From assembly GCA_043818275.1 (NCBI GenBank), contig JBDRFY010000046.1, positions 1-29,895 of the forward strand: a stretch of DNA of 29,895 nucleotides. Direction: 5' to 3'. Made by a program: the position numbers and the translations under genes. This stretch comes from a bacterium. GTDB taxonomy: Bacteria; Babelota; Babeliae; Babelales; JAUWHS01. Of the stretch, positions 10,423 through 27,564 are shown one piece after another (the first letter of the stretch is position 1; each line of letters starts with the position of its first letter). The notes beneath the pieces are model-generated. The model was not told where the DNA came from and did no database searches. It worked only from the letters and a program-made list of their open reading frames with translations.

Positions 10423-10439
10423 ATTTTTATATTTTTTAA

Positions 10440-10670
10440 TTTTGCAGCGTTAAGTTTTTAGACAATAACGCGCTGGATCAAATTAATTTTAATTGATGCA
10501 AAAGAAATTTAAGATTGTTTCGATATTTAAAACAACTTAAAAGTTATATATAAAATTAAGTTGTTTTTCAGATAAATTATCTTTTTAAATTTTCCATACT
10601 AATATTTAAATTTTTTATTTTCGCAAAATTTTGCGAAAATTTGGTTCAGGTAATAATTTTTTGAACCAGA
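10440..10670 (+). ncRNA. Structured intergenic RNA candidate (6S-syntenic position or rny leader)
   Basis: Consecutive stems visible in the sequence; the position downstream of zapA is where ssrS often lies; no clear 6S sequence match seen. Confidence 0.35.
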
Positions 10671-10717
10671 TGTTTTGTGTTTTGTTTATTTTTTAATTAA
10701 TTATTGAAAGACGAGCC

Positions 10718-16064: not shown

Positions 16065-18541
16065 CAGAGTATTTTCATTTCATTTTCTATTTTTTCTCTG
16101 GCAAATTCATAGGAGTCTGATTTTTTAAATTTAATTGGTTTGCCAAATTTAATTACGACTGTTCCCTTTTTTCGTGGGTGCAGTTTTTCATAAGGAACAA
16201 TGTCGTTTGTACCAGTAATTTTTACAGGAATAATTTGACAATTCATATCAACAGCAATTAACCCGGCTCCACGTTTTAATTCCTGAAATTTTCCGCTTTC
16301 ACTTACATGTCCTTCTGGAAAAATAATTACAGAATAATTATCATCTAGCATTTGCCCCATATAATCCAATCCCAGCATTATATTTTCACCTTCTTTTCTT
16401 GGAAGTGGAAAAGTATTTGCAAAAAGTTCTGCCAACCACGCGACGTGTTTAAATTCCTCGTAAACAACATCTCTTGCTGCTGCAATTGCTATTCGTTTTC
16501 TAATGTTGAATGGAAGTGACATAAGAAGTGGAATTGAATCAATATAACTTATATGATTTGACATGAAAATTACGGGCAAATTTATATTTTTTAAGTTTTC
16601 AAGTCCGCCTGTTTTTAATTTTATGAAAAATTTTGAGTATAAAAAAGTTAAAAATTGTCCCGCGTTTCTTATCCAGGAGGCAAAAAAACTTCGCGACCAT
16701 TTTTTTAATGGTGGAAGTTTTGGTAAGGGTTCATGTTTTTCTATAATTTTTTCAAGTTCAGCTACTGTAGTTTTTTGATTTATTATTGTTTCATCTATTG
16801 CCACGTTTAAATCTTGTCCAATTCTTCCAACGATTTCCACCCACATTAAAGAATCTATTTTTAAATTTTCGATCAGTTTTGAATGAGCATGAATTTTATC
16901 AATTTCTACACCGGTTATCTGACTTAATATTTTTTTTACAGGCCCATCAGTATCTTTTTTTATTTTTTGTGACGCGTCTTTTTTACTTTGTAAAATTTTT
17001 AATACTTCTTCTTTTTTTACTTTTCTTGTAGCAGAGCGGGGAAAGTCATCATCCGGCCAAGCAGAATAACCTGTAATTCTTTGATACGTAGCAAGATCTT
17101 CATTTGCAGTATTAATAATTTTTTCTATATCGAACTTTTGATCTTTTAAAAGTAAAACAGCGTGAACTTCTACCATTCCAGAAGGAAGATGTATGCCTAA
17201 AACGCAGCTGTCTTTAACGCCCTCAATTTTATTTAACTCAAGTTCAATATCTTCTGGGAATATGTTTTGTCCTCCGGGACCAATAATAATGTATTTTTTT
17301 CTACCTTTTAAAAACAAAAAACCGTCCTTATCAAATTCTCCCATGTCTCCAGTTTTAAACCAGCCGTCATCCGTAAATTCCTGTTTTGTTTTTTCTTCAT
17401 TTTTAAAATAACCCGAAAAGACATTTGAGCCTTTTGCCAAAATTTCACTTTCATCGCTAATTTTTATTTGAACATCACCTACAGGTTTTCCAACAGATTC
17501 AAATTTATGTTGTTTATATGTATTAGCAGTTAGAAGAGGGGAGGTTTCTGTTAATCCGTATCCTTGTAATAAAGTAATTCCTAAAGCATTCCATTCTTTT
17601 TCTAGATTTGGATCTAAAAATGCACCACCACATCCAATCGTATCAAGTTTTCCACCTATTTTTTTATGAACAGAGTGGAATAATATCTTTGCCAGCATCT
17701 TATTTTTAAATTTGAATGATAATTCAAGCATTTTGTTAAATAGTTTTAATTTTTTCTTTTTTTCTGCTTCATCTTTTATTTTAGACATTAAAAGTTTTAA
17801 AAACTCAGGAACCGCAATCATTTTTGTAATTTTATATTGTTGTAATAAATCCGCAATCGCGGAATATGAATGGGTGTAAATTATATGAACCTTATAATAA
17901 AAGGGCAGAAAAAACCCAATTGTCTGTTCGAATATGTGAGTTAGCGGCAAAATTGAAAGCAAGCGATCTTTGTTTTCCTGTATCATTTCAAGTTGGCTTA
18001 CAGCCTGAATATTTGAATAAATGTTTTTATGTGTAAGCATTACACCTTTTGGATCCCCAGTAGTGCCTGAAGTATATAAAATTTCTATTAAATCATTTTC
18101 ATGAATTTCCGGTTCTTTAAAATCTTTTGGATTCAATTCACTAATTAACTCTTCAATAAGTTCGATATCAAAACGTTTAATATTGTGATCGATGTCACGT
18201 TTTAAAAATTTACTTTGAAAAATTAATTTAGCTTCTGTCTGATCAAGAATTTTATTTATTTGTGCGGATGTATTTTGAATATTAACTGGAACCAAAATGT
18301 TTTTATTTAAAATTGTTGCCCAAAAAATGGTCCCCCAATAAGGAGAATTTGGTGCAAAAATTAAAATTTTATCATTGTGAGTTATTCCTTGTTTTTGTAA
18401 AAATAAAGCGATTTGTCTGGCCATATCATAAACTTGCCTGAATGTTAAAGTTTGGATTCTATGGCTAATTTTCATTGTCAAAGCTGGAGTATTCGGATAT
18501 CTTTTGACAGCATCCTTTAAAATGTTATTAAGAATCTTCAT
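16064..18541 (-). CDS. Fatty acyl-AMP/CoA ligase - acyl carrier domain - lysophospholipid acyltransferase (PlsC-like) fusion
   Basis: YTSGTTGDPKG, GYGLTE, FKTGD (adenylation); IDSL phosphopantetheine site; NHISYID and FPEG (acyltransferase). Confidence 0.88.
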   Translation of the reverse strand: MKILNNILKDAVKRYPNTPALTMKISHRIQTLTFRQVYDMARQIALFLQKQGITHNDKILIFAPNSPYWGTIFWATILNKNILVPVNIQNTSAQINKILDQTEAKLIFQSKFLKRDIDHNIKRFDIELIEELISELNPKDFKEPEIHENDLIEILYTSGTTGDPKGVMLTHKNIYSNIQAVSQLEMIQENKDRLLSILPLTHIFEQTIGFFLPFYYKVHIIYTHSYSAIADLLQQYKITKMIAVPEFLKLLMSKIKDEAEKKKKLKLFNKMLELSFKFKNKMLAKILFHSVHKKIGGKLDTIGCGGAFLDPNLEKEWNALGITLLQGYGLTETSPLLTANTYKQHKFESVGKPVGDVQIKISDESEILAKGSNVFSGYFKNEEKTKQEFTDDGWFKTGDMGEFDKDGFLFLKGRKKYIIIGPGGQNIFPEDIELELNKIEGVKDSCVLGIHLPSGMVEVHAVLLLKDQKFDIEKIINTANEDLATYQRITGYSAWPDDDFPRSATRKVKKEEVLKILQSKKDASQKIKKDTDGPVKKILSQITGVEIDKIHAHSKLIENLKIDSLMWVEIVGRIGQDLNVAIDETIINQKTTVAELEKIIEKHEPLPKLPPLKKWSRSFFASWIRNAGQFLTFLYSKFFIKLKTGGLENLKNINLPVIFMSNHISYIDSIPLLMSLPFNIRKRIAIAAARDVVYEEFKHVAWLAELFANTFPLPRKEGENIMLGLDYMGQMLDDNYSVIIFPEGHVSESGKFQELKRGAGLIAVDMNCQIIPVKITGTNDIVPYEKLHPRKKGTVVIKFGKPIKFKKSDSYEFAREKIENEMKIL

Positions 18542-19115
18542 TACTAATTTCCTTTTCGATAATGGAGATTAGTTTATTTACCGTTTTTTCAAAATCATCA
18601 TTTATTAAATTATATTTAAATAAATGTTCTTTTTTTTCTGTTATCATTTCTTTTTCAGCTAATTTCAGTCTTGTTTTAATTAATTCAGCAGAATCGTTTC
18701 TTTTTTTGAGGCGCTTTTCTAATTCAGATAAGCTTGGTGGTTCAATCCATATTAAGATTGGATTGTGTATTAATGTTAAATAATTTTGGGCTCCGGGATA
18801 GTCAACAACAATTATAAACGACTGGCCTTGTTTTATTTTGTCTAAAATGTCAGTGGGGGAACCATAGTAGTTATCGTGATATTTGGTCGTTTCCAGAAAA
18901 AACCCTTTTTTTTGTTTGTTTAAAAATTCAGTTTCAGATAAAAAATGATAGTCTTTTCCATGCTTTTCATTTTGCCGTGGTTTGCGGGTTGTGTAAGTAA
19001 TGACCTTACTTATTGGATATTTATTTTTTAAACGGTTTAAACCTTCAAGAGTTAATGTTGTTTTGCCGGCCCCAGAAGGAGCTGAAATTATAAAAATTTT
19101 TCCTTGTTTATTCAT
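18528..19115 (-). CDS. gmk: Guanylate kinase (start may be 19115 or 19139)
   Basis: SAPSGAGKTT, TTRKPR, GKDYHF, YYGSP. Confidence 0.95.
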   Translation of the reverse strand: MNKQGKIFIISAPSGAGKTTLTLEGLNRLKNKYPISKVITYTTRKPRQNEKHGKDYHFLSETEFLNKQKKGFFLETTKYHDNYYGSPTDILDKIKQGQSFIIVVDYPGAQNYLTLIHNPILIWIEPPSLSELEKRLKKRNDSAELIKTRLKLAEKEMITEKKEHLFKYNLINDDFEKTVNKLISIIEKEISNEDS

Positions 19116-25360: not shown

Positions 25361-26467
25361 ATGTTTATAAAAAAAATCAAACTAAAAAATTTCAGAAATT
25401 TTAATCAACAAGAATTTGAATTTAACAATAGAATAGTAATTATAGAAGGGCAAAATGGCTCAGGTAAAACCAGTTTGCTTGAAAGTATTTATTATGCCTG
25501 TTTTTTTAAATCATTCAGAACAAATCAACCTAAAGATCTTATCAAAATAGAGGATGCTTATTTTTTTACAGAATTTGATTTTGAAGATGAATTTAATAAT
25601 ACAAATCAAATTCAGGTTGCTTTATCAGCGATTGACGGAAGACTCATAAAATTAAATAAAAATCCAATAACTTCATATAAACAAATTATTTCAAAATATA
25701 AAGTTATAAGCCTTATTGAAGATGATCTTTCTCTTGTTCAGGGAGCACCAGAAGAACGAAGAACGTTTTTAAATCAATTTTTGATGTTGCAAGATCCAGA
25801 AGTAATAAATGAACTGAAAGAATTTAAAAAGATTTTGTTACAAAGAAATGAAATTATTAAAAATGCAACAGAAAAAAATAAAGATCTATCAACTGAAAAA
25901 AATAGTGAATTTTATATTTGGTCAAAACAGCTCTGGGATAAAACAATTATAATTCAAAAGCGTCGAATAAGTTATTTAAAACTATTAGAATCTAAAGTTA
26001 ATGATTTATTGGATACATATCTAAAAAATGAAAATCTTTCAATTAGCTTTGAATACAAAGCTAAAAAAATAAACGCGGCAGAAACTTTTGAAAACTTCTG
26101 GTTAAGATATCCAACTAAAATTAAAGATGAAGAATTGCGGTGGGGCAGAAGTATGTTTGGCGCGCATCTGGATGATTTTTTAATTGTTTTCCAGGAAAAA
26201 AAGGCACGTTCTTTTTCTTCACGAGGGCAACAAAAATTAATTTTGTTTTTAATAAAGGCAGCGCAAGTAATTGAGTTACAGGAAAAGGGGGGCCAACCAG
26301 GTTTTCTTATCGATGATTTTTTAACAGATTTTGATGAAAATCGTATGCAAAGTTGTCTTGATATCTTACAAAAAATTAAGGGTCAAATTTTTATAACATG
26401 TCCAATTAAATCTTATCTTTCTCCTAAAATATCCAAAGAATCCGAAATACAAACCATTATACTGTAA
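25361..26467 (+). CDS. recF: DNA replication/repair protein RecF
   Basis: NFRN, GQNGSGKTSLLE, SFRT, GAPEERR, GAHLDD, SRGQQK, LIDD. Confidence 0.95.
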   Translation: MFIKKIKLKNFRNFNQQEFEFNNRIVIIEGQNGSGKTSLLESIYYACFFKSFRTNQPKDLIKIEDAYFFTEFDFEDEFNNTNQIQVALSAIDGRLIKLNKNPITSYKQIISKYKVISLIEDDLSLVQGAPEERRTFLNQFLMLQDPEVINELKEFKKILLQRNEIIKNATEKNKDLSTEKNSEFYIWSKQLWDKTIIIQKRRISYLKLLESKVNDLLDTYLKNENLSISFEYKAKKINAAETFENFWLRYPTKIKDEELRWGRSMFGAHLDDFLIVFQEKKARSFSSRGQQKLILFLIKAAQVIELQEKGGQPGFLIDDFLTDFDENRMQSCLDILQKIKGQIFITCPIKSYLSPKISKESEIQTIIL

Positions 26468-26703
26468 TTTTTGGCGTTTTCTAGAGCACTTTTAAGAGGT
26501 TGATTTTTATTTTTTTCAGCGATATAATCCAAGGCTCACACTTAAAAAATTGATTTTTTTTGACATTATTTTTCATGTTGAATTCTATTTGAATGTAAGG
26601 AATATCAAAATTTAAAGATTTTAGATGGAAAATAAGGCTAAATATTACAAGTAGAAACAATCTAAAAAAAGCCTGTAGACCGCAAAAAACAGAGCTTTTG
26701 CGC

Positions 26704-26731
26704 TTGATATTCTTATAGAATTAATTATAAT
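26704..26731 (+). promoter_or_regulatory. Near-consensus sigma70 promoter with no downstream CDS
   Basis: TTGATA (26704-26709)-16 bp-TATAAT (26726-26731). Confidence 0.55.
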
Positions 26732-26737
26732 AAAGAA

Positions 26738-26847
26738 AAGTTAGGTTGATATTGTTATCCCTGACTAAAAATTTAACAAGGCTTCATTACTACTCTCCTT
26801 TCTCCTTTTTCCGCCACATGAGTTTCTTATGTGGCGGTTTATTTTTT
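26738..26847 (+). ncRNA. Candidate small regulatory RNA with CU-rich anti-SD seed
   Basis: Promoter, 5' hairpin 26739-26766, single-stranded CTACTCTCCTTTCTCCTTTT, intrinsic terminator. Confidence 0.55.
26811..26847 (+). terminator. Intrinsic terminator
   Basis: CCGCCACATGAG-TTT-CTTATGTGGCGG 12-bp stem (one G-U) followed by TTTATTTTTT. Confidence 0.8.
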
Positions 26848-27051
26848 AACAAGTATTATTAATTATGCTTTAAAGAGATTACCCATAAAAAATGGATACA
26901 ACAGTAAAAATTGTATCCATAAAATAGTTTTGCTGAATTGTGTTAAAAAATTAAATGTTTATCAATATAGTTTTGTTAACATAAGACACGTTACCGGCAA
27001 TCTCTGTCTTTATTCCTATTCTTATTCTTTCTCCTTTTAATCTGTTTATTT

Positions 27052-27564
27052 TTATGTTCTTTTCATAAAAAACCGTTGCTGATTTTCCCATAATCCACAA
27101 ATGGCGGTTGCCATCGCATCTGTAACGTCAGTTTTTTCAATTTTAGGTAATTCATTAAGTTTAGGTACCATACGCAAGATCATTTGAGCAACCTGCTCTT
27201 TGCTTGCTGCCCCATATCCTGTAACTGACATCTTAATTTGACGTGGGGAAAATTCATAAATTTCCGCTTTGTGCTGATCCGCCAAAAGATATAAAATTCC
27301 CCGAAGATATCCCAGCTTTAAAAACGTTTGAGCATTTTTACCAAGAAAAGATGTTTCAAGCGCTATTTGATTTATATTGAATTCATTCATTTTATTTTGA
27401 AAAGAGGTATAAAATTGCCCTGTTCGGATGCTTAAATGATCTGATGATTTAAATTTTAAAAAACCATAATCAATAATACTTGTTTTATTATTTTTGCATG
27501 AAAGAACAGCAAAACCGGTTACAGAAAATCCTGGATCTATTCCTAAGATGACAAAGTCCTTCAC
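27052..27564 (-). CDS. ruvC: Holliday junction resolvase RuvC
   Basis: ILGIDPG, IALE, IKMSVTGYGAASKEQV, DVTDAMATA. Confidence 0.96.
   Translation of the reverse strand: MKDFVILGIDPGFSVTGFAVLSCKNNKTSIIDYGFLKFKSSDHLSIRTGQFYTSFQNKMNEFNINQIALETSFLGKNAQTFLKLGYLRGILYLLADQHKAEIYEFSPRQIKMSVTGYGAASKEQVAQMILRMVPKLNELPKIEKTDVTDAMATAICGLWENQQRFFMKRT

Follow-up and report, generated by a model that had tools for sequence, protein, structure and literature searches.

What does the 584-bp gap between the convergent genes recF and ruvC encode in this member of the Babelota? Our window is a 29,895-nt stretch of one contig from a 1.33-Mb genome (G000) with 31% G+C. A sequence-only reading had placed in the gap a stand-alone small RNA (sRNA) gene on the plus strand, with a seed that would block ribosome-binding sites. 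Pfam identifies both flanking genes, and the promoter, 5′ hairpin, unpaired seed and terminator with U tract all lie where that reading had put them (Table 1). The seed mirrors the typical start region of the source genome, namely a Shine–Dalgarno (SD) sequence, a 7-nt spacer, AUG and a lysine codon, with a spacing equal to the modal SD position of the genome (G peak at −9/−8).

Table 1 Features of the sRNA locus and related sites in the window.
Feature	Position	Strand	Remarks
recF	25361-26467	+	Upstream neighbour, outside the RNA (context); Pfam
Sigma70-like promoter TTGATA-16-TATAAT	26704-26731	+	Predicted start site near 26737-26738
5′ hairpin	26739-26766	+	Sequence variable, structure kept
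Antisense micro-ORF MKPC	26773-26787	-	Frame present; judged a by-product of the seed
Unpaired seed region	26780-26812	+	Anti-codon-2, anti-AUG, spacer, anti-SD, U tract
Anti-AUG (CAU)	26785-26787	+	Within seed region
Anti-SD	26795-26800	+	Separated from anti-AUG by a 7-nt spacer
Second anti-SD	26802-26807	+	Lineage-specific; within seed region
Intrinsic terminator	26811-26847	+	12-bp stem 26811-26837, then U tract
ruvC	27052-27564	-	Convergent neighbour (context); Pfam
AMP-binding/acyltransferase gene start	18536-18554	-	Weaker candidate target; 17/19 bases complementary to seed

Taken alone, promoter-like sites in 1.2 kb occur at chance level (7 versus 5.7 in shuffles), and the one that precedes the sRNA is the best of the seven, with 11/12 matches. 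The element folds with a z score of −4.85, matched by 0/200 shuffles, and the seed region of the source copy is predicted to be unpaired in this fold. The gap also contains a second promoter-like site upstream of the sRNA (26500–26528), a terminator-like hairpin just before the sRNA promoter (26681–26702) and, on the minus strand, a separate hairpin with a U tract (26892–26920) that would stop a ruvC transcript short of the sRNA. The stretch between this second promoter-like site and the terminator-like hairpin folds no better than shuffles (z −0.5).

The element is found across the phylum. A covariance model built from 64 copies (R1) matches 149 of 151 Babelota/TM6 genomes, mostly once each; the 151 include the training genomes, and the match in G034 is weak. 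BLAST recovers the core in 36/40 relatives, while a control search with another intergenic stretch of the window yields short AT-rich matches (E > 4e-4) in 4/40. Scanning 185,579 species genomes for exact matches to the 20-nt seed gives at least 120 loci (about 210 estimated). Homologues of one gene of the source genome carry Dependentiae or Babeliales labels, in line with its placement in the Babelota. Among the seed matches listed, 34 of 80 seed-bearing records belong to Dependentiae, TM6 or Babeliales, and three named outsiders match the seed without a terminator. The position is stable on one side, with recF directly upstream in 84/97 loci; downstream neighbours vary, and ruvC follows in 7/97 loci, a minority of lineages. 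Five deep-branching genomes, including both that R1 misses, carry a divergent CU-rich-plus-terminator unit, located behind recF in G008, G028, G017 and G159 and elsewhere in G034. These deep-branching families retain the anti-SD tract and terminator and have lost the anti-AUG half. Tandem duplicates of the sRNA gene occur at nine loci (L006, L003, L070, L094, L107, L114, L138, L306 and L328), often as a long-seed copy beside a short-seed one, and every copy has a terminator of its own. Within the source genome, BLAST matches of the gap to contig C33 fall inside a coding gene and are chance, and matches on C76 and C50 were rejected as extra gene copies because no full terminator follows on that strand.

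The copies share a defined anatomy. Of 138 distinct core matches, 131 pass a terminator filter; the seven failures are five chance matches in other taxa (L029, L038, L089, L115 and L132, left out of later counts), one copy whose U tract is displaced and one truncated where its contig stops. The sequence-only reading had named a non-conserved seed, together with the lack of a discrete plus-strand transcript, as the outcome that would speak against the gene. The seed is conserved: a 15-nt core (26784–26798) comprising the anti-start-codon and the anti-SD is invariant in 64/64 aligned copies, which were chosen on 14 of the 15 core bases, the genome count from R1 being the unselected measure. The tandem anti-SD that the same reading stressed is present here; the doubled form is lineage-specific and a minority (27/131 copies), and the conserved form is a single anti-SD plus the anti-start-codon. 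Homologues and covariation, which had been proposed as a check, are both in evidence: all 12 of the 12 terminator stem pairs show compensatory changes, and 98.4% of stem cells are paired compared with 29–53% in slid controls. Read on the plus strand, the stem contains 58 G–U cells versus 3 A–C cells, which makes the plus strand the transcribed orientation of the hairpin. A sigma70-like promoter lies upstream of 95/129 copies, versus 9 in the reverse complement and 14.6 in shuffled sequence, and in the 30 nt upstream of the −35 element no position is conserved above 61% (109 copies). Among homologous 5′ parts, 67/103 fold at z < −2 against mononucleotide shuffles. Predicted RNA lengths range from 80 to 186 nt (median 118), and the core is mostly unpaired, with a median unpaired probability of 0.84 over 147 copies. 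This promoter conservation suggests that the RNA may have a transcript of its own, as a trans-acting, base-pairing sRNA would.

We then compared the element with known RNA classes. At gathering score, Rfam matched neither the window nor any of 10 loci searched, and six sub-threshold hits (E up to 10) were judged chance. A housekeeping RNA was rejected because no SRP, tmRNA or 6S model matches at the locus; the SRP RNA of the source genome is on contig C50, its tmRNA is at another locus (ARAGORN), and the 6S model finds nothing in this genome. 6S RNA often sits in gaps of the zapA–rny kind. One such gap in the window (10430–10700) lies between genes labelled zapA-like and rny-like from their translations, not by family search; it had no match in the Rfam search and is not conserved in relatives, and it is structured (fold z −3.2). 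The earlier reading had also suggested looking for hfq and csrA. Hfq was not found in 21 genomes (0/21), CsrA was not found in the source genome (94% complete) and ProQ was not found there (0/1 genome searched), with positive controls for the Hfq and ProQ searches. A CsrB/RsmZ-type sponge is rejected on the absence of CsrA (0/1 genome) and because the GGA words lie opposite to the strand marked by the promoter and U tract. A cis-acting type I antitoxin is rejected because there is no conserved overlapping small toxin ORF and the downstream neighbours vary. Complementary target sites are present elsewhere in the genome, two of them beyond the null and one of these kept in the sister species G001.

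To identify these targets, we paired the RNA with the 1063 gene starts of the source genome, whose start codons come from a crude gene caller. The best two starts pair at −46.8 and −45.4 kcal/mol, whereas the best sites of 40 shuffled seeds keeping the anti-SD average −33.0 kcal/mol, with an extreme of −38.1. They belong to a secretin gene (C76:6279, minus strand; PF00263) and a TPR-like gene (C50:8883, minus strand), and both duplexes extend into the 5′ arm of the terminator. The secretin leader contains perfect complementary blocks of 20 and 15 nt, expected 6e-6 and 2e-3 times per genome, and G001 keeps both blocks around a diverged, unrelated spacer. Of 19 orthologue loci, 2 have a strong long secretin site and 17 lack it. 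Strong ribosome-binding sites pair with any anti-SD: six sites reach −30 kcal/mol or lower, a count inside the shuffled range (mean 2.4, maximum 7).

The TPR-like gene is found in 31/40 relatives and missing in 9/40. It was not found in three genomes that carry the canonical RNA, and an alignment search in 10 genomes recovered no TPR-like gene, bar one weak TPR hit. Its starts pair better than background (median −19.1 versus −12.1; 29 versus 362 starts), in a comparison across kin, which are non-independent samples, as in all our target comparisons across relatives. They read RUG-RRG-Y in 15/29 cases versus 23/1063 genes in the source genome. The SD of this family is somewhat stronger anyway (−7.4 versus −6.2), and there is no covariation between own and other copy (17/30). 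The TPR-like protein (G000:C50:8320-8883, minus strand; L141:321-884) has an all-helical predicted model with a pLDDT of 94.5, and this Babelota family is without a specific Pfam model. A run of large secreted-looking paralogues sharing C-terminal repeats lies on the same contig (G000:C50:12580-19927).

Further candidates vary between lineages. In relatives, 29/40 near-matches (40 of 42 pattern sites were examined) fall at starts of frames of at least 100 codons; a search pattern with an SD and AUG in it picks out gene starts by construction. Matching starts, drawn from these near-matches and a second scan, include mreB, mreC, pilin-like, nucleotide-sugar epimerase, UDP-glucose dehydrogenase, nucleotidyl transferase and EVE-protein genes. 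Core-picked sites pair better with the copy of their own genome in 21/30 cases (one of the 30 sites has a frame of only 5 codons), and background genes lean slightly to their own copy too (149/271). Among genes starting with MK, GU at −3/−2 associates with AAG as codon 2 (11:17 versus 44:238, p = 0.004), and the spacer complementary to the seed shows no clear enrichment over the genome (GTAGT is 15th among 403 5-mers). In three genomes of one genus (L294–L296), whose sRNA has a variant seed plus U tract, a seed-matching start lies on a GalU-like nucleotidyl transferase gene. A global secreted-protein regulon was rejected because it could not be told apart from SD strength: the enrichment of signal-peptide-like genes among the top hits was equalled by a 16S 3′-end probe (52 versus 49 of 100). 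The epimerase family (C5:1092 in the source genome) does not reach significance (p = 0.056). Target prediction, another check proposed by the sequence-only reading, thus yields two starts beyond the null but no single universal target: secretin, epimerase and TPR-like family each fail, and no long-pairing target is phylum-wide. Neither rRNA nor tRNA contains a long complement to the seed, the longest exact match being 8 nt in an rRNA region.

Taken together, we consider it probable that the element is an Hfq-independent RNA that covers the SD and AUG of several mRNAs and excludes the 30S subunit, a multi-target translation blocker. The seed invariance, terminator covariation, promoter and two mRNA starts all support the stand-alone gene with an RBS-blocking seed that the earlier reading proposed. 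In our model, the promoter-like site would drive a plus-strand RNA of roughly 110 nt, whose invariant unpaired core would pair across the SD and start codon of several mRNAs. By analogy with the streptococcal csRNAs and chlamydial IhtA, the duplex would keep the 30S subunit off and repress translation. Such action could proceed without Hfq, CsrA or ProQ, aided by long duplexes reaching into the terminator 5′ arm. The target set would vary by lineage, often comprising envelope, pilus and nucleotide-sugar genes, and many partial partners may jointly hold the seed fixed.

How does this RNA relate to known regulators? The sequence-only reading had likened it to RsaE and RNAIII. These Firmicutes RNAs and LhrC likewise direct a C/U-rich single-stranded seed against SD sequences. 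They use short UCCC loops, whereas the Babelota seed is long and linear, includes an anti-AUG and has no Rfam match. The streptococcal csRNAs are a closer analogue, and the element most likely works as they do while being non-homologous. In the accessible sections of the csRNA papers, these RNAs come from hosts that lack Hfq and have a region complementary to SD and AUG left unpaired between two stem–loops; compensatory mutations served to test how they pair with comC (PMC3091779, PMC4507080). Judged against those sections, the Babelota RNA resembles the CiaR-dependent csRNAs in its 5′ stem–loop, unpaired middle and terminator. It differs in phylum, in lacking an Rfam match, in being usually single copy at a fixed place behind recF, in its plain sigma70-like promoter, upstream of which no conserved box was seen, and in having its seed copied by phages.

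A second analogue comes from an obligate intracellular bacterium. Chlamydia IhtA, as described in the part of PMC4355289 available, is an Hfq-independent sRNA whose pairing around the AUG prevents translation. The Babelota, strictly intracellular bacteria of protists according to the available part of PMC12172432, share with it the intracellular setting and a predicted Hfq-independent pairing at the AUG region. On the same partial account, IhtA depends on a G/C clamp of 7 nt and acts on defined developmental targets, while the Babelota RNA offers about 20–35 nt over SD and AUG, and no homology between the two was found. The accessible parts of PMC12172432 and PMC6561590 make no mention of Babelota sRNAs or phages. 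A literature search that covered mainly open-access main texts turned up neither sRNA nor phage studies of the Babelota, nor any description of this RNA, so that a listing in a motif catalogue is possible. The earlier suggestion of a possibly undescribed regulator agrees with this and with the Rfam result. The element belongs to a real, phylum-wide and apparently undescribed sRNA family of a known mechanistic type, and the seed copies in phages are its new twist.

Exact copies of the 20-nt seed are present on 23 IMG/VR contigs. They make up 16 distinct elements; a hairpin follows every one of these, and recF is never found within 300 nt. The covariance model matches all 22 phage contigs searched (L356 was left out). 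Shared proteins link the 23 contigs into one tailed-phage group, and representatives of these proteins fall into families of major head, portal and large terminase proteins. A 16-mer pattern gave 56 distinct matches; those inside the phage group have a hairpin in 26/29 cases, compared with 6/27 scored elsewhere (five of these on the 23 contigs). The group spans about 620 capsid-encoding IMG/VR stretches, with longer contigs of about 35–42 kb (L353–L375, L376–L455) and a capsid 85–100% conserved among the best 80 of these stretches; of 80 capsid-chosen loci, 11 have a model match at E < 0.01, often with a varied seed. Among isolated phages, none exceeds 28% capsid identity and none has a seed copy at a useful E value. 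Eleven of the 16 phage elements lie 5–65 nt downstream of a same-strand stop codon, after different genes, and 3/16 have a promoter-like site, suggesting that most phage copies are 3′-end-derived RNAs. The capsid gene also appears in 3/261 phylum genomes, on stretches without any gene matching the source genome; this is co-binning and not proof of infection. That the group infects Babelota is nevertheless likely, as is a reuse of the host seed trick by these phages.

The phage copies would hit the same targets as the host RNA or time phage genes. Seed complements are commoner at phage starts than at host starts (16/1467 versus 3/1063), with 2 for a reversed-word control, and 10/12 of the phage starts concerned are without stop–start coupling. 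This excess runs against a simple silencing prediction. We put forward only tentatively, as doubtful though possible, the fuller proposal that the RNA is the general translation-start blocker of the phylum and that phages repeatedly built exact seed copies into their own gene 3′ ends, either to silence host surface genes such as the pilus secretin and so mask the receptor, or to maintain the silencing of a host defence gene after host transcription has failed. Known phage sRNAs such as VpdS, PreS and AgvB also intervene in host post-transcriptional control. In the available part of the source (PMC12197685), these are phage-specific, Hfq-bound or target-mimicking sponge RNAs, unlike the Babelota-type copies, which carry the seed and terminator architecture of the host sRNA itself.

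Could the core be read by something other than mRNA? A conserved protein or the translation machinery might recognize it as a decoy or antitoxin-like partner, with mRNA complementarity secondary and phages copying the core to titrate or pacify that partner. The 15-nt core is fixed in phylum and phages while the long mRNA matches differ between lineages, it resembles the 16S 3′ end (8-nt shared word) and an initiator-anticodon-like CAU, and no chaperone was found. We nonetheless regard this as unlikely, since two mRNA leaders pair far beyond chance, with one site kept around a diverged spacer, deep-branching families keep the locus and drop the anti-AUG half, and rRNA and tRNA offer no long complement (longest exact match 8 nt, in the rRNA region). 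The phage starts raise a different idea, namely that the RNA pairs with translation starts and stabilizes or times mRNAs instead of silencing them: their enrichment (16/1467 versus 2 for the reversed word), mostly without stop–start coupling (10/12), means that recognition may be useful to the phage. Against it, related phages are non-independent samples, and the duplex covers SD and AUG, an arrangement that blocks 30S loading in csRNA–comC and IhtA–hctA according to the accessible accounts, which makes this idea improbable.

The position of the copies bears on whether the element is a separate gene at all. An element acting only in cis, at the 3′ end of the dnaN–recF transcript, and consisting of a terminator and a conserved upstream motif, would suit the same-strand recF that precedes 84/97 loci, as well as the phage copies, 11/16 of which lie just behind a same-strand stop and 3/16 of which have a promoter-like site. 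It fits poorly with the promoters owned by 95/129 copies, the tandem copies with a terminator on each, the copies away from recF, the further terminator-like hairpin that precedes the promoter and the matching mRNA starts elsewhere in the genome, and we judge it very improbable. The least credible explanation, to which we give hardly any weight, is a functional minus strand, holding either the minimal ORF (MKPC) or the GGA-rich CsrA sites that the sequence-only reading had offered as alternatives. Every canonical copy does have a perfect SD-AUG-AAG on the minus strand. Yet the frame runs from 3 to 76 codons among copies with no conserved peptide, the promoter, U tract and G–U pairs all mark the plus strand, and the lack of a detectable CsrA in the 94%-complete source genome disfavours the CsrA sites.

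Regulation in the Babelota is essentially undescribed in the literature, and it is unusual to see a base-pairing sRNA conserved throughout a phylum whose genomes are reduced and without Hfq. Its phylum-wide retention suggests a central switch, plausibly one between the free and the replicating form. The seed also hints at the host of a large group of uncultured phages. The seed copies suggest that phages copy a host regulatory RNA outright and, if true, the phages of an intracellular bacterium would here mimic, at the RNA level, a core sRNA of their host. Contigs of the phage group are present in three Babelota metagenome-assembled genomes (L464–L468: G075:C3, G242:C5, G242:C3, G131:C26 and G131:C59), among which the relative on G242:C3 is more distant (capsid about 41%). 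Several phage contigs have a capsid gene in two parts with an HNH gene between them, an intron-like arrangement.
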